Shown here piece after piece: positions 41,594-62,113 of a DNA stretch of 64,000 nucleotides; the stretch's first letter is position 1; every line of letters begins with the position of its first letter. This DNA comes from a virus, in the IMG/VR virus record IMGVR_UViG_3300044653_000098, positions 77,725-141,724 of that record, one strand, 5' to 3'. Position numbers and translations under genes: made by a program. The notes beneath the pieces are model-generated. The model was not told the DNA's origin, made no database searches, and saw nothing but the letters and a program-made list of their open reading frames with translations.

Positions 41594-41662
41594 ATGATCT
41601 TACGCAGGGGGAGACCCAGCCCCCGTAGCCCAAAACACCAAGAGGCAGAGGCGCCGCTTTAA
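41594..41662 (+). CDS. putative regulatory mini-ORF (ATG ATC TTA...) overlapping tRNA-Leu(UAA)
   Basis: GAGGAAG SD-like sequence, 22 codons; TTA at codon 3; its TAA stop is the tRNA anticodon. Confidence 0.35.
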   Translation: MILRRGRPSPRSPKHQEAEAPL

Positions 41663-41702
41663 AACCGGTCGAGTGTGGGTTCGAGCCCCACCGGGGGCAC
41701 CA
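41619..41702 (+). tRNA. tRNA-Leu(UAA), bldA-type anticodon, atypical
   Basis: Acceptor GCCCCCG/CGGGGGC, loop TT-TAA-AA, GTGGG-TTCGAGC-CCCAC, encoded CCA; enlarged D-loop and C.C mismatch closing the anticodon stem. Confidence 0.75.
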
Positions 41703-42323: not shown

Positions 42324-42398
42324 CTGGGTATAGCTCAGGTTGGTCAGAGCGCGCGGTCCGGGGCCGCGAGGCCGCTGGTTCAAATCCAGCTACTCAGA
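42324..42398 (+). tRNA. tRNA-Pro(CGG), C33
   Basis: CGCGG-TCCGGGG-CCGCG. Confidence 0.8.
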
Positions 42399-42400
42399 CC

Positions 42401-42530
42401 GGGGGGAGATGCGGGTTCGAGTCCCGCCCTGTCCGTGAAAACTCTCCGCGGTGGCCGATCTGCAGGCGGCTGGCCGGCCAGGGCCCTGGTCAGGAGAGGG
42501 ACAGGTAGTCCAATTGGCAGGACGCCCCCT
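42401..42530 (+). ncRNA. circularly permuted tRNA-like RNA (YrlA-like)
   Basis: 3' half (GGGGG, T-arm, CCTGTCC) precedes 5' half (GGACAGG, D-arm GTCC/GGAC, CCCCC). Confidence 0.65.
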
Positions 42531-42658
42531 ACATTTTCTGGTGCGGCTTACCACGATCCGGCTGGGGTTCGGGAGAAGAACGTCCGGGAGGTCGAGCGCA
42601 ATACGCGGGCGCAGTTCCGCGCAAACGGCGGCCGGATGCTGTGGGAGCACCAGAACAA

Positions 42659-42733
42659 CGGGATGTCGCGTAAGGGTTAGCGCGCCTGGTTTGGGACCAG
42701 GCAGTCAAGGTTCGAGTCCTTGTATCCCGACCA
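42659..42733 (+). tRNA. tRNA-Pro(UGG)
   Basis: CCTGG-TTTGGGA-CCAGG; CCA. Confidence 0.85.
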
Positions 42734-42800
42734 GCGGCCAGGATGTTCACCGTGTCCTGGTGCAGCGGAGGCTCGTTAGGGAGCACCCAACGGTGACGGC

Positions 42801-42873
42801 GGGTCTGTAGCTCAGACGGGAGAGCGGTCCCCTGAAAAGGGACAGGTGGAGGATTCGATCGCCTCCGGGCCCA
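42801..42873 (+). tRNA. tRNA-Phe(GAA)
   Basis: GTCCC-CTGAAAA-GGGAC. Confidence 0.8.
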
Positions 42874-42891
42874 CGCTGTAGCAGGTAGCCC

Positions 42892-42963
42892 GCCGCACTA
42901 ACACAATGGCTAGTGTGTCTGTCTTCCAAGCAGAGAATGCGAGTTCGATTCTCGCGTGCGGCT
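42892..42963 (+). tRNA. tRNA-Gly(UCC)
   Basis: TCTGT-CTTCCAA-GCAGA. Confidence 0.85.
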
Positions 42964-43068
42964 CGGTGACGAGCAGAGCTGAAACCTCTGTGATCGCGCA
43001 AGTGGCTGGCAGGCCACGGCCGGGCAGGCTCTGGGGGACTGCCATCTCGCAGGGGTGCCCGGTTCTGA

Positions 43069-43141
43069 GTGCCGCTAGCACAACGGTTACTGCACCTGAC
43101 TCTTAATCAGGGGGTTCTCGGTTCGAGTCCGAGGCGGCGCA
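43069..43141 (+). tRNA. tRNA-Lys(CUU)
   Basis: CCTGA-CTCTTAA-TCAGG. Confidence 0.85.
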
Positions 43142-43142
43142 C

Positions 43143-43218
43143 GGGCGAGTACGTCCAACTGGCAGAGCGGCCGGCCTCAAAATCCGCGCGGTTGCGGGTT
43201 CGACTCCCGCCTCGCCTA
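43143..43218 (+). tRNA. tRNA-Leu(CAA)
   Basis: Loop CTCAAAA; short variable arm. Confidence 0.7.
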
Positions 43219-43223
43219 CACGA

Positions 43224-43297
43224 TGGAGCATGGTGGTAATTCGGTATCCCACTGGGCCCTGAACCCAGGGATCCAGGTTCGAGTCCTGGTGCTCCAG
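43224..43297 (+). tRNA. tRNA-Gln(CUG), C33
   Basis: CTGGG-CCCTGAA-CCCAG. Confidence 0.8.
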
Positions 43298-43396
43298 CTA
43301 GTCCTGGCCCGGCTTTCCCTGAATTGACAGGCGACCCCGAAGCGTGACGGCGCATAAGGGGACGGGCACGACGGTGCGGTCCGGCCGGGACTTCAT

Positions 43397-43471
43397 GCCT
43401 CCGTAGCTCAATGGTGGAGCAGTGCCCCCGTAAGGCACAGGCCGCAGGGTCAGTACCTGCCGGAGGCTCCA
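43397..43471 (+). tRNA. tRNA-Thr(CGU), C33
   Basis: GTGCC-CCCGTAA-GGCAC; CCA; variant T-loop. Confidence 0.75.
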
Positions 43472-43472
43472 T

Positions 43473-43561
43473 GCGCTCGTGGCGGAATAGGTATACGCGC
43501 TAGCCCGAGATGCTAGTGCTCCGCGAGGGGCGTGCGGGTTCGACTCCCGCCGAGCGCACCA
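43473..43561 (+). tRNA. tRNA-Leu(GAG), C33
   Basis: CTAGC-CCGAGAT-GCTAG; long variable arm; CCA. Confidence 0.85.
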
Positions 43562-43562
43562 C

Positions 43563-43631
43563 GCCGCCGCGCACGGCTTGCGGCCCGGCTCCTGTAAAGC
43601 TGGAGGTCCGGATCGGCACCGGACGGCGGCT
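43563..43631 (+). tRNA. tRNA-Thr(UGU), C33, degenerate D/T loops
   Basis: CGGCT-CCTGTAA-AGCTG; acceptor GCCGCCG/CGGCGGC. Confidence 0.55.
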
Positions 43632-43635
43632 CTGC

Positions 43636-43709
43636 TCCGGGATCGGGTTGCCGGCATCCCGACGCGGCTTTGGACCGCGGTCACGCTGGTTCGAGTCCAG
43701 CTCCCGGAA
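43636..43709 (+). tRNA. tRNA-Gln(UUG)
   Basis: CGCGG-CTTTGGA-CCGCG. Confidence 0.8.
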
Positions 43710-43713
43710 CGAT

Positions 43714-43785
43714 GCCTGCCTAGTGATAACGGCAGCACGCGTCCTTGGTAAGGACGTAGACGGAGTTCAATTCTCCGGGCAGGCT
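43714..43785 (+). tRNA. tRNA-Thr(GGU)
   Basis: CGTCC-TTGGTAA-GGACG. Confidence 0.85.
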
Positions 43786-43789
43786 CTGT

Positions 43790-43862
43790 GTGGACGTGGC
43801 GAAGCTGGTATCGCATCTGCTTGCCAAGCAGAAGATCGCGGGTTCGATCCCCGTCGTCCACT
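43790..43862 (+). tRNA. tRNA-Gly(GCC)
   Basis: TCTGC-TTGCCAA-GCAGA. Confidence 0.85.
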
Positions 43863-43959
43863 CTCCGGCTGCGGTGTTCACCGTGCCAATGCGAAGGGCC
43901 CGACAGGTTCGGTAACCCGGATGGATAAGTCTGCTAGGCCAGCAGGCAAACGGTTGAAT

Positions 43960-44043
43960 GTCCCGGTGGCGTAATTGGTAGCCGCGCACGGCTCAGACCC
44001 GTGTGCCTTAACGGGCGTGAGGGTTCGACCCCCTCCTGGGACA
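43960..44043 (+). tRNA. tRNA-Leu(CAG)
   Basis: CACGG-CTCAGAC-CCGTG; long variable arm. Confidence 0.85.
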
Positions 44044-44153
44044 CGATCGGAACTCCCTCCCGCCGCGGTTCGCGAACGCGGTGATCAGGAGAGCTAAGGG
44101 TCTGGCCCCGCGCCCGGCCGGAGGAGTTCACAGTCAATGCGCATGGCAAGCGG

Positions 44154-44237
44154 GGCGTGACATGGTCTGCGACCAGCTGGAGGTTGGAGGCGGCCTGCAA
44201 AGCCGTCAGCAGCGGGGTTCGATTCCCCGGCGGGCCT
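44154..44237 (+). tRNA. tRNA-Cys(GCA), 5' half irregular
   Basis: GCGGC-CTGCAAA-GCCGT and a clear T-arm; acceptor and D-arm hard to resolve. Confidence 0.45.
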
Positions 44238-44440
44238 CTAACAGGCTCCGTCTGCGTGGATTTCGCAGTTCGGGCCGTTCCCCGGCGGGATGGCATTGGC
44301 GGAGGCTGCGGCCGCGCTCAGGAGGGTGCCGAGTGCAATACCCGCGGCGAGAAGGGCTGCTAGAAGTCGGTAGCGCATGGTCTTCACCTTTCTGCTGGTA
44401 GCTGTCACGGTACGCCTAAGTGATTGTTCTGCACAGGCAT

Positions 44441-44525
44441 GGAGCGGTGGCCGAGCGGCCTATGGCGGTGTCCTGCTAAGGCACTCACCGGAAACGGTGC
44501 GCGGGTTCAAATCCCGCTCGCTCCT
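44441..44525 (+). tRNA. tRNA-Ser(GCU)
   Basis: GTGTC-CTGCTAA-GGCAC; long variable arm. Confidence 0.85.
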
Positions 44526-44528
44526 CTT

Positions 44529-44613
44529 GGAAGGTAGCGCCGAGGATGGCGAACTGGTCCCGAAAACCAGGCCGGGGTGAGTAGCCCCGAGGGTTCGATT
44601 CCTTTACCTTCCT
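44529..44613 (+). tRNA. tRNA-Ser(CGA), C33
   Basis: CTGGT-CCCGAAA-ACCAG. Confidence 0.8.
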
Positions 44614-44617
44614 CTGA

Positions 44618-44691
44618 CCGCCCCGGCTCAGCCGGTGAAGAGGCCCGTCTGATAAGCGGGTAGTCGCATGGTTCAACTCCATGGGGGCGGA
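44618..44691 (+). tRNA. tRNA-Ile(GAU)
   Basis: CCCGT-CTGATAA-GCGGG. Confidence 0.75.
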
Positions 44692-44692
44692 C

Positions 44693-44767
44693 TGGCCAGT
44701 AGCACAAAGGTAAGTGCACCCGTCTTATAAGCGGGCGATACGGAGTCAAGACCCGGCTGGCCTACCA
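44693..44767 (+). tRNA. tRNA-Ile(UAU)
   Basis: CCCGT-CTTATAA-GCGGG; CCA; variant T-loop. Confidence 0.65.
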
Positions 44768-44840
44768 GCTCCCCGCGCCCGACTGGACGGGCACCGGACT
44801 TTTAATCCGGACTGACTGGGTTCGATTCCTTGGGGGAGCA
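44768..44840 (+). tRNA. tRNA-Lys(UUU)
   Basis: CCGGA-CTTTTAA-TCCGG. Confidence 0.75.
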
Positions 44841-44845
44841 CGCAA

Positions 44846-44917
44846 GCGTCGCTGGTGTAAAGGAAGCGCGCTCGCCTTCTAAGCGAGATGGTCTCAGTTC
44901 GATTCTGGGGCGACGCA
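44846..44917 (+). tRNA. tRNA-Arg(UCU)
   Basis: CTCGC-CTTCTAA-GCGAG. Confidence 0.8.
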
Positions 44918-44918
44918 C

Positions 44919-44989
44919 GGCTCGTTAGGTTAACGGCAGACCGCCTGGTTCTCAGCCAGGGAGCAGGGGTTCAATTCCCCTACGAGCTA
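44919..44989 (+). tRNA. tRNA-Glu(CUC)
   Basis: CCTGG-TTCTCAG-CCAGG. Confidence 0.85.
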
Positions 44990-44993
44990 CTTT

Positions 44994-45071
44994 GCCGCTG
45001 TTACTCTGATGGTAAGGGGTAGCCGGGTTTTCACCCCGGACACGACGCGGGTTCGAGTCCCGTCAGCGGCT
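44994..45071 (+). tRNA. tRNA-Glu(UUC)
   Basis: CCGGG-TTTTCAC-CCCGG. Confidence 0.8.
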
Positions 45072-45072
45072 C

Positions 45073-45146
45073 TGCGGACAGCAGCACCGGTCGTGCTGAA
45101 CGGTCTCATAAGCCGAGATAGCTGGGTTCGACTCCCAGGTCCGCAA
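45073..45146 (+). tRNA. tRNA-Met(CAU)
   Basis: CGGT-CTCATAA-GCCG. Confidence 0.7.
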
Positions 45147-45159
45147 CTGTTCAATCTGA

Positions 45160-45233
45160 TCCGGCGTAGCTCAGTCTGGTAGAGCAGCCGCCCGTTAAGC
45201 GGAAGCGCGCAGGTTCGAGCCCTGCCGCCGGAG
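45160..45233 (+). tRNA. tRNA-Asn(GUU), C33
   Basis: CCGC-CCGTTAA-GCGG. Confidence 0.85.
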
Positions 45234-45245
45234 CGCAGTAATCAT

Positions 45246-45318
45246 GGTTCTGTAGCTCAGTGGTCAGAGCGTCCGCCTGTCGAGCGGAGGGCCGCGGGTT
45301 CGACTCCCGTCAGGACCG
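45246..45318 (+). tRNA. tRNA-Asp(GUC)
   Basis: TCCGC-CTGTCGA-GCGGA. Confidence 0.85.
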
Positions 45319-45329
45319 CGCATGATAAA

Positions 45330-45404
45330 GGGTGCTTAGCTCAGCGGAAGAGCAGCAGCACGACACGCTGAAGGCCGCAGGTTCGATCCCTGCAGCGCCC
45401 ACCA
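45330..45404 (+). tRNA. tRNA-Val(GAC), C33
   Basis: CAGC-ACGACAC-GCTG; CCA. Confidence 0.8.
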
Positions 45405-45492
45405 TGCGCGTTACGCCGGAGAACGGCCGCCCAATACGCGCAGCAGGGGACTGTCGTACAGGCGGAGGAAGTCGGCTTGGCGGTCCCAACTA

Positions 45493-45564
45493 GCGTCCAT
45501 CGTTCAACGGATAGGACGGCAGGCTACGGACCTGCTGATGGGAGTTCGAGTCTTCCTGGACGCA
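45493..45564 (+). tRNA. tRNA-Arg(ACG)
   Basis: GCAGG-CTACGGA-CCTGC. Confidence 0.85.
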
Positions 45565-45565
45565 C

Positions 45566-45637
45566 GGGCCGTTAGCTCAGCGGCAGAGCGGCGCCCCCAC
45601 ACGGCGCGCAGCGGAGGTTCGAGTCCTCCATGGCCCA
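45566..45637 (+). tRNA. tRNA-Val(CAC), C33
   Basis: GCGCC-CCCACAC-GGCGC. Confidence 0.8.
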
Positions 45638-45639
45638 CT

Positions 45640-45710
45640 GAGGGCGAACCGCATGGCGCGGAGGCTGGTTGTGAGCCAGTCAGCAGCGGGTTCGAATCCC
45701 GTCGTCCTCC
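45640..45710 (+). tRNA. tRNA-His(GUG)
   Basis: GCTGG-TTGTGAG-CCAGT. Confidence 0.75.
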
Positions 45711-45796
45711 CTTTCCCCCGGTCGTAGGGCCGCACCCGGCAGGGTGATCCGGAGAGCCTGTGTCCATCAGGGCGGGGATCAAAAACTCCGGGCTAT

Positions 45797-45877
45797 GGCG
45801 GAGTGACCCGAGATGGCATGGGAGCGGTCTGTAAAACCGTCGCTTCGGCACGGCTGGTTCGATTCCAGCGTCCGCCA
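45797..45877 (+). tRNA. tRNA-Tyr(GUA)
   Basis: GCGGT-CTGTAAA-ACCGT; long variable arm. Confidence 0.8.
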
Positions 45878-45932
45878 CTCTCCGGGTGCAGGAGCCACAC
45901 GGCTTGGCCGCCGTGCCTGCCCCGGAGCGTAA

Positions 45933-46004
45933 GCGCCTATCGTTCAGTGGATAGGATCGCGGCCCCCGAAGCCGCAGACGCTGGTTCGAGTCCAGCTGGG
46001 CGCA
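45933..46004 (+). tRNA. tRNA-Arg(CCG), C33
   Basis: GCGGC-CCCCGAA-GCCGC. Confidence 0.85.
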
Positions 46005-46005
46005 C

Positions 46006-46077
46006 TGGCCTGAAGCTCAATGGACGAGCGGTCGCCCCCTAAGCGAACGGCTGCGGGTTCGAGTCCCGTCAGGCCGG
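46006..46077 (+). tRNA. tRNA-Arg(CCU), C33
   Basis: TCGC-CCCCTAA-GCGA. Confidence 0.75.
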
Positions 46078-46292
46078 CCACATCGATGCTCACGCTGCGA
46101 GTTGTCCTGGTATCCGGTTCGGCGTTTCTTGCCCGTCGTCCTATCCGGCCCGGCCCCGTCCAAGCGCTCCCGCGGAGATAGCTGTTGTGGCGGGGCCCGG
46201 TCGTATGATAGAGTTGCTTTCGTAACCGCCCGGACCTGCCTATCAGTGCGACGCAGCCGGGCGGACCGCTTTTCCGGGCCGATGAGCCGGCC

Positions 46293-53266: not shown

Positions 53267-53626
53267 ATGATGACAGTTCTGAACTTCACTGCTGAGTGGG
53301 CCTGGGAGAACGCTGACCCGGAGCCGGAGAGCTACGGCTACGTGACCTTGCGGGCGCACGGTTTCGAGATCGCCCGGATCCCCATGGGTTTCTGGCACCG
53401 GGTGCGGCAGGACGAGCCCTCGGATGCTCAGGTCGAGGAGGTTGTCGGCGAGTGGCTGACCGACCGGCTGGCTGCCGGGCCGGTGGTGCGGGCGCTGGCG
53501 GCCGAGGCTGAGAGCCAGCGCGCTGAGGGCGAGGCCCGGCACTACGATGATGACCCGTCGAGCGAGTTGCACCTTTTTCTCGCGGAAGTGCTGGGCCGGA
53601 TCTCGGTCAGAGCATCTCTGGGCTGA
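53267..53626 (+). CDS. hypothetical protein
   Basis: GTAATAG-N5-ATG. Confidence 0.55.
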   Translation: MMTVLNFTAEWAWENADPEPESYGYVTLRAHGFEIARIPMGFWHRVRQDEPSDAQVEEVVGEWLTDRLAAGPVVRALAAEAESQRAEGEARHYDDDPSSELHLFLAEVLGRISVRASLG

Positions 53627-53737
53627 GATCCCCTCCTGGGTAGAGGATCAGCTTGCCCTGGAGCACGCGCCGATGGCGTAGGTGTGTCTGGAGGGCCCTT
53701 CATCATGCCTCCCTACCGCTTGGGGAGGTGATGCCTG

Positions 53738-55379
53738 ATGCCGTCTGAGGAACCGATTTTTGCTGATTATGTCGAGCTGGCCGGGCCGTCTGTGCCCGGA
53801 GCTGGCCTTGGTGTAATGCCTCCGGGCGGCATGTTACCTGGGGGTCACCACCCAGGGATTCGGACAAGAGGGATATGTCCTCTCAGACGATGACGTAGGC
53901 CCGCAGCCTCCCCCGCAGGAAGCCGACCTCTCGTTCGCCACGGGTGTCCCGTACTTCCTGCCGTTCGCCACGCCTTACCGCGACAGCTGGGAGGTGTTCC
54001 GGGAGGACCCGGTCACCATCAGCCAGCTGGTGTCCATGCGCCGCCAGGACGGCCAGGCACGTGCGCTGTACCGGCTGCTGACCATGCCGCTGCTCGCCGC
54101 GCTGAAGAACTGCGACGTGGTGCCGGTCGACGGCCAGCTCGGCGGGTCGGAGGAAGCAGCTTTCTGCAAGGATCTGCTCACGCTGCCCGCCTCCAGCGGG
54201 GGCATGACCCACAGCTTCGGCCGGTTCATCCGCCAGATGCTGCTCGCGCTGTTCAACGGCTTCAGCGCCTGGGAGATGGTCTACTGGGTGCCCACCACCG
54301 GGCCGCAGAAGGGCAAGATCACCCTTCGCAAGATCGACTGGCGCCCGGCCGAGACGCTGACCTTCCTGCTCGACGGCCAGGGCGAGTTCAACGGCTTCCG
54401 GCAGCGCACGTTCTTTCAGGGCCGCACGATCGACGTCAAGATCCCCAAGAACACCGCGGTCTACTATGCGCACGAGGAGGCAGAGCGCCCGTTTTATGGT
54501 GTTTCGATGTTCGAGAGCGCCTTCTACCACTACGACAAGAAGGTAAAGCTTTACTACATCGCCCACCTCGCGGCGCAGCGCTCCGCCGTCGGCATGCGCG
54601 TCGGCACGATGCCCCCGAACCCGGCCGCCCAGGACAAGAACAACTTCGTCCGCGGGCTGGCCGACCTGGGGCTGGCGCAGTACATGGTGGTGCCGAGCGC
54701 TGACTGGATCGTGCAGAGCCTCAAGGAAGATTCGAGCTTCGACTTCCTCGGCCTGATCAACCACCACAACAGCGAGATGAGCAAGTCCATCCTCGCCCAG
54801 TGGTTCGACCAGCAGCAGGGCGGCGGCCAGGGCGACAGCTCGCTGGTCGACTTCGGCAAGCAGTCCGACGTCACCTTCATGATGATGCTGGACGGCATCC
54901 TGGAGGAGATGGCCGAGGTCATCACCCAGCACATCTTCCCGCGGTTCGTGGACTGGAACTTCGGCTCGGGCAAGTACCCGCAGTTCAAGTGGGGGCCGCT
55001 GACCGGTGAGCAGAAGGCCGCGATCCAGGACACGTTCGACAAGCTCGCGCTGGCCGGCCAGAACGCCAACTGCACTCCCCAGTTCATGATGGAGCTGGAG
55101 AAGAAGATGGCCGGGGAGTTCGGGTTCGACATCGACTACGACACGATCGAGAAAGAGCAGGAAGCCCAGCACCAGCTCCAGCTCAAGATGGATCAGGCTC
55201 AGGCCAAGGCCCAGATCCAGGCCCTGCAGAACCCGGAGCAGCAGGCCGCGGGAGGCAGCGCCGGAACTACGGCTGGCGGCAGTGCAGGAGGCTCCTCGAA
55301 TGGCGGCAGCCAGGGCGGGGCGATGAGTACGCCAGGCAACCTGCTGCCCTCGGGCTTCCAGGCGAAGTCTGCTGCTTAG
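53738..55379 (+). CDS. portal protein (Mu gp29/DUF935-like), discontinuous reading frame at TTA 53834
   Basis: ALFNGFSAWEMVY, PFYGVSMF, HHNSEMSKSILAQ, FVDWNFG; GGAGGTG SD precedes ATG 53738 in a different frame from the body. Confidence 0.8.
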
Positions 55380-59850: not shown

Positions 59851-60381
59851 GTGGCCACATACGACAGCTTTGAGTTCGACTACATCCCGGCGTATACGAA
59901 GCCGACGCACGAGTACGGCCAGGAGCTGGGCACCGCCCCGTACGCCAGCCAGTTCCTGGCTCCGGTCGTCCGGGAGCTGCTCAAGAGCTACGCGGCCTTC
60001 ACCCAGAAGGGCGTCACGCTCGCCGGCGGCAACGGCATCCTGCCGACCGGCTGTGTGCTGGCGATGCAGACGGCGAACCAGCTGTACTACCCGTACAACG
60101 CGACGGCCAGCGACGGCACGCAGACCGCGCTGGGCGTGCTGCGCGATGCCCGCGACACCGGCACCTCCTCGGGCTCGGGCACCGGTCAGGTCTCGACGGC
60201 ATGCCTCGGCAACCTGGTCTACCGCGGCATCCTGGACCTCACCCTGGTCTCCGGCACCGACACCACCTCGCTGGTCACCGCAGGAACCGGGACGGGCGGC
60301 GGCATTGGCTCGGGCACCACGGGCGTGGTCACTCAGCTCAAGGCCCGCACCGACACGGTTAATGGCTTGTTCATTTTCTAG
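59851..60381 (+). CDS. head decoration protein (lambda gpD-like)
   Basis: GVTLAGG.GILPTGCVL..YYPYNATASDGTQTALGVL; lies between protease and MCP. Confidence 0.7.
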   Translation: MATYDSFEFDYIPAYTKPTHEYGQELGTAPYASQFLAPVVRELLKSYAAFTQKGVTLAGGNGILPTGCVLAMQTANQLYYPYNATASDGTQTALGVLRDARDTGTSSGSGTGQVSTACLGNLVYRGILDLTLVSGTDTTSLVTAGTGTGGGIGSGTTGVVTQLKARTDTVNGLFIF

Positions 60382-60404
60382 TGTTTTGTCCGTTTTCTCC
60401 GGTT

Positions 60405-60437
60405 GACGGCGGCTCGTGGTTTGCGGGCCGCCGTTTC
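60405..60437 (+). terminator. stem-loop after the decoration gene
   Basis: ACGGCGGCTCGT...GCGGGCCGCCGTTT. Confidence 0.45.
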
Positions 60438-60489
60438 CCGTATAAGAGGGCATGGGGGAAACGAAGTTCTGACTGGGCACCCACCGCAT

Positions 60490-60647
60490 CTACTCCGATA
60501 TGTGGCGGTTGTAATCGCGGAATCATCTGTAAGAACTGCAACGCCATGCTCGGGTTGGCTAATGATGACCCGGACGTTCTGGCCTCGGCTCTTGCCTATC
60601 TCCAGGAGTGGGCTACGGTGATGGCGGACAGGCAGTTGGCTACCTAG
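60490..60647 (+). pseudogene. remnant of an endonuclease VII-type HNH homing endonuclease
   Basis: CNRGIICKNCNAMLGLANDDPDVLASALAYL; N-terminal part absent; lower GC. Confidence 0.6.
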
Positions 60648-60671
60648 CTGTCGGGTCCGAATATGGCAGAG

Positions 60672-60710
60672 CGGGCGCTCCTCCTCGCCGGGGAGGCGCC
60701 CGTTTTGTTG
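60672..60710 (+). terminator. intrinsic terminator
   Basis: CGGGCG-CTCC...GGAG-GCGCCCG-TTTTGTT. Confidence 0.6.
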
Positions 60711-60733
60711 TCTGCGCACGTGGCCCCCGCTGA

Positions 60734-60741
60734 GCCGATAA
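60734..60741 (+). promoter_or_regulatory. sigma-28-type -10 element upstream of the major capsid gene
   Basis: Exact GCCGATAA. Confidence 0.65.
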
Positions 60742-60843
60742 GAGAGATCAGGTCGCGCTCCCCGGAGTCGCTGACGGAAAACTCGACAGCAACTTGAGAG
60801 AGGTCCCGCTGGCGGGGCCGCCCCGAGGAGGTGACGCCCAAAA

Positions 60844-62113
60844 ATGCCCAATATCAGCCTTCTTGAACCGATGGTCCTGAGAGGGGTAGTTTTACCGGGT
60901 TGAGAAATTTACAGTCCCGGAATCTCTCGTAATGCTCAACCGGCTCGACCAGACCCCGTGGCCGTGGCCGTACGCGACGTGGGACGTGATCAAGGGCTCG
61001 CGCATGATGGCAGCGCCCAACGTCCCGAACGCCGAGGCGCACATCGTCTCCCGTCTCGGCCGCAGCCAGGAGACCGCGAGCTTCGTCTACCTGCGCGAGA
61101 AGAAGATCTTCGAGCCGACCACGCTGCACTGGCTGCGCGTGCCTGGCGAGCTGGCCCGGGTCAACGCCGAGCAGAGCGTGCTGCGCGAGGTCAACGACCT
61201 CAACCAGCGCTTTGATAACTTTGCCGAATGGCTGATCTGGCAGGCTATGGGCGGCTCGATCGTCTTCCAGAGCGGCCAGGGCTTCGCTGGCACCTCCGGC
61301 CCGACGGGCCCGAGCGGGATCAGTTCTGGAGCCGGTGACGTTCAGGCGACGGTCGACTTCAAGTTCCCGTCCAGCCACTTCGTCCAGCCCGCGGTCCCGT
61401 GGCTGGCCAACAGCGCGCTGACGTGGGGCACGACCGGCATCGGCGCCAACACGACGCTGAACCAGGCCAACACCAACCTGCAGGCCGGCGGCGGCTCGAT
61501 CTCCTACGCGACTCCCATGGAGATCGTGGAGGACATCCGGTCCTGGAAGCGGATCGTCCAGATCCACGGCCGCGTCCCGGCCACGGAGGTCTTCGCCACC
61601 TCGGTCACCCTCGCTGCGATGTTCGAGGCGTGGGTCCAGGCTGGTCAGGGTTCTACCGTCAACATCCCGGCCACGATGCTCAGCGACCGGATGAAGGATG
61701 AGTATTACTCGTCCGGCACGCTCTCGGGCTTCATGGGCCTGACCTGGAACACCGTCGAGGAAGTCTTCGAGAACACCTCGGGCGTCCTGACGTTCTTCGT
61801 CCCCGACGGCATGCTCTACATGGGCAACTACAGCGACCAGCGGCCGCTGGAGCTGCTGATCGGCCCGACCGCGGACGACGAGGCGCCAGATGGATTCACC
61901 GGCAAGTACGCCAAGACGTGGAAGGAAAAGGACCCGTCGGCGCGGCAGTACCTGCTGGAGTGGAACCTCCTGCCGATCGTGACCCGGCCCGAGCAGATGC
62001 TCGTGGTCGACGGCATCATCGCCAACAACACGACCACGGCTACCTACGCCGGCGGCTCGGGTGGCAGCCTCCAGACCTACCCGTACTACTTCAACCAGAA
62101 CCCGACCGATTGA
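60844..62113 (+). CDS. major capsid protein (lambda gpE-like), requires a 10-nt hop at 60892-60901
   Basis: GAGGAGG SD, ATG 60844 MPNISLLEPMVLRGVV|EKFTVPESLVMLNR...; downstream EWLIWQAM, VDFKFP, WKEKDPS..LP. Confidence 0.85.

Follow-up and report, generated by a model that had tools for sequence, protein, structure and literature searches.

The subject of this analysis is the gene for the major capsid protein of an uncultured soil phage, the reading frame of which is broken near its 5' end by a 10-nt insert. The gene lies in a 64,000-nt stretch of DNA, hereafter called the window (positions 77,725 to 141,724 of IMG/VR virus record IMGVR_UViG_3300044653_000098). All coordinates below are positions in the window, and all features listed in Table 1 are on the plus strand. 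The product was identified by Pfam as a capsid protein of the lambda gpE type (PF03864, E 8.7e-19, 68.2 bits against a cut-off of 22.9), and directly upstream lie genes for a Mu-I-type protease/scaffold and a head decoration protein D homologue. The gene opens with a strong Shine-Dalgarno (SD) sequence and ATG 60844. After 16 codons, which we call exon 1, the zero frame continues with TTA 60892, CCG and GGT to TGA 60901–60903, and the capsid frame is taken up again at GAG 60902, the first codon of exon 2. The last codon of exon 1, GTT 60889–91, is repeated at 60899–901, immediately before the resume codon. When the sequence was checked, every base of this layout, the matched codons included, lay where a first-pass annotation made from the sequence alone had placed it. 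The edges of the gap can be moved 1–4 nt upstream with the protein unchanged. The +1 frame is open from 60890, reading TTT TAC CGG GTT(60899) GAG(60902) AAA TTT, and runs into a 393-aa open reading frame (ORF) that extends from ATG 60932, the start chosen by gene callers, to 62113. As argued below, the arrangement is probably read by ribosomes that stall at the UUA codon and bypass the gap.

Table 1. Features of the capsid and portal loci of the window, followed by the corresponding junctions of related capsid genes (insert in square brackets)
Feature	Position	Strand	Basis or detail
Atypical tRNA-like gene, TTTAAAA loop, possible UAA anticodon	41619..41702	+	Rfam tRNA 17.9 bits, E 1.5, below threshold
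tRNA-Val(GAC)	45330..45404	+	ARAGORN; reads GUU (take-off, wobble) and GUC/GUU (landing)
Portal exon 1, 32 codons	53738..53833	+	last codon is take-off ATG 53831–33; L195 unbroken
Portal gap, 7 nt, TTACCTG	53834..53840	+	near-cognate landing CTG; comparison with relatives
Portal exon 2, Mu-type portal	53841..55379	+	Pfam PF06074, E 2.5e-31
Swapped cassette	60361..60910	+	sliding identity against L004: unrelated inside, 90–100% nt identical on both sides
88-aa ORF, C-terminal half of an endonuclease VII (HNH-like) domain	60381..60647	+	PF02945, E 9.1e-8, profile positions 49–81 of 82
SD sequence GAGGAGG	60826..60832	+	11 nt before capsid start codon
Capsid exon 1, codons 1–16 (MPNISLLEPMVLRGVV)	60844..60891	+	last codon is take-off GTT 60889–60891
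Internal SD-like GAGG, from rare Arg AGA plus GGG	60881..60884	+	4 nt upstream of take-off codon
Predicted untranslated gap, 10 nt, TTACCGGGTT	60892..60901	+	stall codon TTA 60892–94, landing triplet GTT 60899–901
Possible hairpin, 3' part of gap and landing codon (CCGGGTTG) with CAG.TCCCGG	60895..60920	+	-9.5 kcal/mol
Zero-frame TGA	60901..60903	+	closes a 19-aa product if TTA is decoded normally
Capsid exon 2 (EKFTVPESLVMLNR... to stop), lambda gpE family	60902..62113	+	PF03864 and homologues
L067 capsid junction			GTT[TTACCCGGTC]GAG
L068 capsid junction			GTT[TTAGCGGGTT]GAG
L070 capsid junction			GTT[TTAGAGGGTT]GAG
L189 capsid junction			GTT[TTAGCGGGTC]GAG
L041 capsid junction			GTT[TTAAGTT]GAG
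L190 capsid junction			GTT[TTAGGTC]GAA
L031 capsid junction, two codons upstream of the others' site			GGT[TTAACCCCGC]GTC GTC GAA

A protein search returned 726 capsid homologues with N-termini that are continuous through ...ISLLEPxVLRGVVEKFxxPE.... One of them, P0006, has exactly the N-terminus predicted for the product of a hop, apart from valine for threonine at residue 20, and is identical in the 16 residues of exon 1. We also compared 63 related viral loci (L###, homologous contigs), and the more than 50 uninterrupted ones show zero length variation at the RGVVEKF junction. L004, held by the near-identical genome G001 together with the portal locus L195, is 100% identical to the window over the 393 residues from ATG 60932 and is without the 10 nt; L002/P0001 (96%) and L005 are without them as well. 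These closest relatives read GTG, GTC or GTT followed by GAG where the window has GTT TTACCGGGTT GAG. Since the homologues read the junction unbroken, the window has 10 extra bases, and the contiguous RGVVEKF is what the first-pass annotation had expected an alignment to give. Three truncated gene calls (P0097, P0107 and P0116) were considered as further interruptions and rejected as start-codon miscalls at genes with GTG starts.

The insert is real DNA, because independent contigs bridge the site without an indel. Logan contigs from three further soil runs, all from other studies, cross 60892–60901 in this way, and one of them is a strain variant with 17 single-nucleotide polymorphisms downstream. 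Altogether four soil runs, each from a different study, contain the insert, with a word depth of up to 24x, and their contigs show the interrupted form only. A scan of metagenome contigs for the 10-nt form gave no match, but that collection probably lacks these samples and is uninformative on frequency. A loose pattern (GTTTTA..GTYGAGAARTT) matched unrelated AT-rich phages among viral contigs, and stricter patterns were used. The source record is 141,724 nt long with 66.8% G+C and is rated 100% complete by CheckV, and the sequencing runs that carry the phage are soil metagenomes. Its sole cultured relative is Microbacterium phage Magritte (capsid identity 48.7%), and a search of a genome collection gave a single match, to a contig filed under a Nanopelagicales metagenome-assembled genome.

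Seven further contigs, drawn from JGI, ENA and IMG/VR, are interrupted at the same place by inserts of 7 or 10 nt (Table 1). Counting the window, this makes eight capsid genes, which together with three portal sites described below give 11 TTA-led sites in total. TTA comes first in every insert and is in frame with exon 1 (8/8 capsid and 3/3 portal inserts), and seven of the eight capsid genes have GTT or GTC directly in front of the resume codon. Five loci, the window among them, share the form GTT[TTA NNN GGTY]GAG, with a variable spacer (CCG, CCC, GCG, GAG) while TTA and the landing GTY are constant. Across the 11 sites, take-off and landing triplets correspond as GTT to GTT or GTC in seven cases and as GGT to GGT in one. 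The remaining three, two of ATG to CTG and the GGT to CGC of L031, match at positions 2 and 3 only.

Stops in the inserts vary. The zero-frame stop is not kept: it is absent from L067, L189, L190 and L031, and CGA is found in L067 and L189. In the +1 frame, T-TAG or T-TAA occurs in L068, L070, L189, L041, L190 and L031 and at the first portal site of L205, so a +1 slip at the take-off codon would terminate there. A GGAGGTG-type SD sequence before the start and an open exon 1 are kept in all eight interrupted genes, and the exon-1 protein is conserved in all of them despite many synonymous changes. The insert, its recurrence and these rules of design are direct observations.

In a quick maximum-likelihood tree of the capsid genes, the interrupted genes are scattered. 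The window falls inside a well-supported clade of five genes, of which it alone is interrupted. GTT, a rare codon, stands at the take-off position in 7/7 genes interrupted at this codon versus 3/42 uninterrupted genes. G+C content at third codon positions (GC3) in exon 1 is also lower in interrupted genes (0.55 versus 0.71, p 0.006); this p value, like those given below for the GAGG motif and the nuclease link, was computed ignoring the kinship of the loci. As a separate observation, the capsid genes of L041, L190, L023, L028, L030 and L046 apparently start at ATC or ATT (IPDISLL...), 7–9 nt after a strong GGAGG, and no in-frame ATG, GTG or TTG is present at those starts.

The same genome has a second gap, in its portal gene. 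Here the window reads GGC GGC ATG [TTACCTG] GGG GTC ACC, where the portal of L195, 99% identical in amino acid sequence, is unbroken (...PPGGMGVTTQGFG), as are four more distant portals (PPGG[M/L]GV[T/S][T/S]QG). In a pattern scan, L205 and L206 turned up with two gaps each in the portal gene, separated by eight codons. Gap one is at the same place as that of the window and reads ATG [TTAGCTG] GGA; gap two reads GGT [TTACCCTGGT] CAA, with GGT matched to GGT. A genome-wide scan for TTA-led frame junctions returned the portal and capsid sites only, and no gpE-type capsid gene was found in the L205/L206 DNA examined. In a 143.5-kb relative, the portal homologue match of L199 (G002:81116-82663, minus strand) contains one in-frame TGA, which could be recoding, a break or an error.

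TTA is strongly avoided by this phage. In a crude ORF set it occurs once in 33,705 codons, versus 46.5 occurrences expected from position-specific base frequencies, and by strand it was counted in 0 of 28,769 codons of plus genes and 1 of 3,607 codons of minus genes. The ORFs counted had GC3 > 0.78 and more G+C at first than at second codon positions (GC1 > GC2), a high-GC coding signature. Other rare codons ending in A occur 36–298 times. The remark in the first-pass annotation that no other in-frame TTA was seen is nearly right, with one TTA in about 33,700 codons; the portal gene has its TTA-led break at 53834. Such strong avoidance is compatible with a host that reads UUA poorly.

ARAGORN identified 31 phage tRNAs, including Leu tRNAs with the anticodons CAA, GAG and CAG and no standard Leu(UAA). 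The ARAGORN list also lacks Leu(UAG), Val(UAC) and any Ala, Trp or Tyr tRNA. Thirty of the tRNA genes form an array at 42324–46080 in which most amino acids are covered. The tRNA-like gene at 41619–41702 has a perfect acceptor stem, a T arm, discriminator A and CCA, together with an oversized D region and a short variable arm, and ARAGORN matches it only at relaxed settings. Its homologue in gap-free G001 has a long variable arm, as in tRNA-Leu, and standard finders miss both. This gene could be relevant to control of a hop.

Two candidate stimulators surround the capsid gap. The internal GAGG belongs to a motif, [AC]GAGG (Arg-Gly written as AGA or CGA followed by GG), that lies upstream of the site in 6/8 interrupted versus 3/42 uninterrupted genes (Fisher p 1.3e-4). 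Its placement resembles that of the prfB stimulator and of the internal SD proposed for Streptomyces phage phiHau3. The other candidate is a CCGGG/CCCGG stem said in the first-pass annotation to start right after TTA. Pairing is indeed possible (CCGGG 60895–99 with CCCGG 60916–20), but for the window taken by itself the fold does not reach significance (z -1.19). In five loci the native 3-nt spacer ranked 1, 5, <=10, <=10 and 33 among the 64 possible spacers, which is weak support for the hairpin. The spacer of related genes is often complementary to the V/T-P-E codons downstream, as with GCGGG/CCCGC in L068. A mini-hairpin upstream in the window, GGUA-GUUU-UACC, was set aside for lack of conservation among relatives, and a conserved take-off hairpin was likewise not found.

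Relative to G001, the window has two replaced or divergent segments, 60361–60910 and 53268–53867, and each gap lies at the 3' edge of one of them. The capsid-side cassette contains the endonuclease-like ORF, the capsid leader, exon 1 and the gap. High identity to L004 is back within about 10 nt of the capsid gap, and high identity to L195 begins just after 53840; the return of identity about 10–30 nt after each gap is the pattern expected of co-conversion tracts. When the 170 nt that precede the resume codon are compared, the six best matches of the window all bear inserts. Judging from its half domain, the 88-aa ORF is probably a remnant or a divergent nuclease. A small EndoVII ORF is also found upstream, divergently oriented, in L068, L041 and L189 (crude Fisher p 2.9e-4). 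A nuclease domain was looked for beside the portal gap and not found.

In two related loci a group I intron interrupts exactly the Val codon at which the short gaps lie (GT^Y GAG), at L019:1190-1470 and L191:700-975. Their scores against RF00028 are 40.6 and 37.2 bits (E 4e-8 and 3e-7), under the gathering score of 50, and both loci have a gene of about 300 aa with an EndoVII domain upstream. We considered whether the short inserts are leftovers of imprecise intron loss and rejected this, as they are unlike the intron ends of L019 and L191. The comparison suggests that the gaps may mark a homing target, the uninterrupted form of which would be of the GGCGTGGTTGAGAAGTTC type. The conserved leader upstream of the capsid gene (60700–60830 in the window) reads GGCGGCGCAGGCCGGGCTCGG..CCGGGTCGCTG..ACAGC, followed by a variable GC hairpin and the SD sequence. 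The same leader occurs in L067–L070, L189 and L193, and it may be a late promoter, an element of the 5' untranslated region or the terminator of the upstream gene.

We put the probability at roughly three in four that the capsid mRNA is read by translational bypass after a stall at UUA, in the manner proposed for the phiHau3 terminase. Ribosomes would start at AUG 60844, translate 16 codons and stall with peptidyl-tRNA-Val on GUU 60889–91 in the P site and the almost unused UUA 60892–94 in the A site. The peptidyl-tRNA would then unpair, the mRNA would slide by 10 nt, and the tRNA would re-pair with GUU 60899–901. Decoding would restart at GAG 60902 and yield the full-length gpE-type capsid protein, with the junction ...RGVV/EKF.... 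If UUA were decoded instead, the result would be a 19-aa peptide stopping at UGA 60901. The SD-like GAGG 4 nt before take-off is a likely helper, and perhaps also a hairpin across the gap and landing site. The portal mRNA of the same phage would be read alike, from its AUG over a 7-nt gap to the near-cognate CUG. A hop over 10 nt from GUU to GUU at UUA was the central proposal of the first-pass annotation, and the eight capsid genes, the +1-frame stops and the portal site lend it strong support. That ribosomes hop, how efficiently they do so and any regulatory use of the hop are what we infer from this pattern. The first-pass annotation further proposed that capsid protein is made when Leu-tRNA(UAA) is scarce, which would tie virion assembly to Streptomyces development through bldA; this proposal gained no support from the results obtained here. 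Hopping may be constitutive if UUA is in effect an unassigned codon, or it may be a side effect of a selfish DNA element that the phage tolerates.

A +1 frameshift would join the same two frames, either by tRNA-Val slipping from GUU to UUU while UUA is unoccupied in the A site or by a later tRNA slipping at GGU-UGA as in prfB, and would leave three extra residues in the product (GVV-YRV-EKF). The window on its own would allow this, with its open +1 frame (TTT TAC CGG GTT GAG from 60890), a GAGG 4 nt before the P-site codon much like that of prfB, and UGA after GGU. The related sites make it unlikely. Most other capsid loci and one portal site have TAG or TAA right after take-off, L067 and L189 are without the UGA, and re-pairing of GUU with UUU would involve only two of three positions. 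No homologue has extra residues at the junction, which the later slip, itself needing UUA to be decoded, would add. No one frameshift rule covers every site, whereas a putative hop does: re-pairing 7 or 10 nt downstream, by a full match or a match at positions 2 and 3, is the sole rule that fits all 11. It is also improbable, to a slightly greater degree, that the interruption goes undecoded and that the capsid protein is made from ATG 60932 without its first 26 residues, or that the gene is dead in a defective phage. This in-frame ATG does open the ORF preferred by gene callers, but an SD sequence is absent before it, and L041, L190 and L031 have Leu instead of Met at that position. In 8/8 interrupted genes the frame, strong SD and amino acid sequence of exon 1 are preserved, the interruption lies at the same codon and begins with TTA in independent lineages, and neither the recovery of the insert from four studies, at depths of up to 24x, nor the completeness of the genome fits a dead gene.

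A third possibility is that the 10 nt are dealt with before translation, being removed or compensated through RNA processing or editing, polymerase realignment or an uninterrupted sub-population of the DNA. The self-splicing group I intron at the same site in L019 and L191 means that RNA-level removal of inserts there does happen. Inserts of 7–10 nt, however, are too short to fold as a ribozyme, and the in-frame TTA and matching landing triplets are features read by ribosomes, not by splicing or editing. The contigs of four runs hold only the interrupted form, with the caveat that contigs drop rare variants, and we regard removal before translation as very unlikely. An assembly or sequencing artefact, a concern for any metagenome-assembled contig such as the window and one that the first-pass annotation had raised, has a negligible chance of explaining the insert: the same 10 nt recur in contigs of three other studies, and variant inserts in seven other assemblies.

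Several points weigh against bypass itself. The hop is a prediction made from sequence. Capsid protein is needed in hundreds of copies and the hop would therefore have to be efficient, while published short UUA hops look inefficient. L031 (GGT to CGC) and the portal (ATG to CTG) have no fully matched landing triplet. The +1 frame is open in both the window and L067, so a +1 shift to VV-YRV-EKF is possible for these two. The candidate hairpin does not reach significance in the window, and the statistics for GAGG, GC3 and the nuclease link ignore shared ancestry.

With regard to origin, we offer a more speculative proposal, which we think could be right but would not bet on: the TTA micro-gaps may be immunity marks in a conflict among selfish DNAs and not primarily regulators. 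A 7–10-nt insert at GT^Y GAG would block cleavage and would travel as a cassette with an ORF for an HNH/EndoVII-type nuclease, and the near-total avoidance of TTA would make the hop efficient enough. If this is true, short-gap bypass would be a high-efficiency, widespread decoding mode in soil actinophages. Whatever their origin, the capsid variants and portal sites amount to a natural mutational series that defines the signal, with +1 and zero-frame stops varying. There is also a consequence for annotation, as the capsid and portal genes of such phages are called truncated, with callers starting at an internal Met or Val.

To our knowledge, natural bypassing comes from very few systems, namely T4 gene 60 and its relatives, yeast mitochondrial byps and the candidate phiHau3 terminase, and we know of UUA-led short-gap bypass only as a published candidate in a few Streptomyces phage terminase genes. 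T4 gene 60 is reportedly translated by bypassing a gap of 50 nt (work attributed to Huang, 1988), and that gap is said to belong to a MobA homing-endonuclease cassette (attributed to Bonocora, 2011). The capsid gene would resemble gene 60 in its matched take-off and landing codons (at the level of sequence), a retained peptidyl-tRNA, a slow A-site codon and its place in an essential phage gene. As with MobA, the insert is patchily distributed as if mobile and adjoins an HNH-type nuclease ORF. A gap at the group I intron site within a recombined cassette would link recoding to selfish-DNA conflict, as in T4. The differences are a gap of 10 nt and not 50, an A-site codon that is the rare sense codon UUA and not the stop UAG, a take-off hairpin that is not established and a nuclease that is only a half-domain remnant. 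No specific nascent-peptide signal was singled out either, because exon 1 is equally conserved in uninterrupted genes. With prfB (RF2) the capsid site shares an SD-like element 3–4 nt before the P-site codon, an A-site codon that is read poorly and a net +1 change of frame; unlike prfB it has no slippery CUU-U, its A-site codon is UUA and not a stop, and at most related sites a one-base slip would run into a +1-frame stop.

Hungry-codon bypassing in E. coli, associated with Gallant and Lindsley, is reportedly an experimental, low-level event. The byp elements of Magnusiomyces mitochondria are mentioned in PMC10732093. In both, as proposed here, a starved or unassigned A-site codon is followed by re-pairing of the peptidyl-tRNA with a matching triplet downstream; unlike the byps, which are GC-rich mitochondrial inserts of 27–55 nt, ours are inserts of 7 or 10 nt in phage structural genes.

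The closest precedent is the large terminase gene of phiHau3, which the first-pass annotation had cited and which is real: according to Antonov et al. (2023, RNA Biol, PMC10732093), it contains two 10-nt UUA-led coding gaps (Smith et al. 2013). The StrepC.1 prophage and an S. catenulae prophage have one such gap each, the latter of 7 nt (PMC10732093). In E. coli, with UUA changed to UAA, the junction peptide was detected by mass spectrometry, and a +1-frame stop in the gap left recoding unreduced (PMC10732093). The word 'capsid' is absent from that paper (PMC10732093). The capsid and portal sites are like those of phiHau3 in their frame-breaking inserts of 7 or 10 nt with UUA at the 5' end, found in virion or packaging genes that are essential to a high-GC, TTA-avoiding phage. 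The flanks are likewise contiguous in relatives, the junction is highly conserved, and two sites per genome are possible; in both cases the signals put forward are a landing triplet, local structure and an internal SD. Unlike phiHau3, the genes concerned are those of the major capsid protein and the portal and not the terminase, with the gap at codon 17 (codon 33 in the portal), and the phage is a 142-kb, tRNA-rich, uncultured soil phage unrelated to R4-like phages. Also particular to the present case, which is predicted from sequence, are the eight-variant capsid series, the group I intron site and the swapped cassette. The mechanism itself is not new; by its sequence features this case repeats the known design in different genes and an uncultured, unrelated lineage. 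Here, however, the phiHau3-type signal is in the most heavily expressed virion gene, which would mean either that the hop is efficient or that the supply of capsid protein is deliberately throttled.

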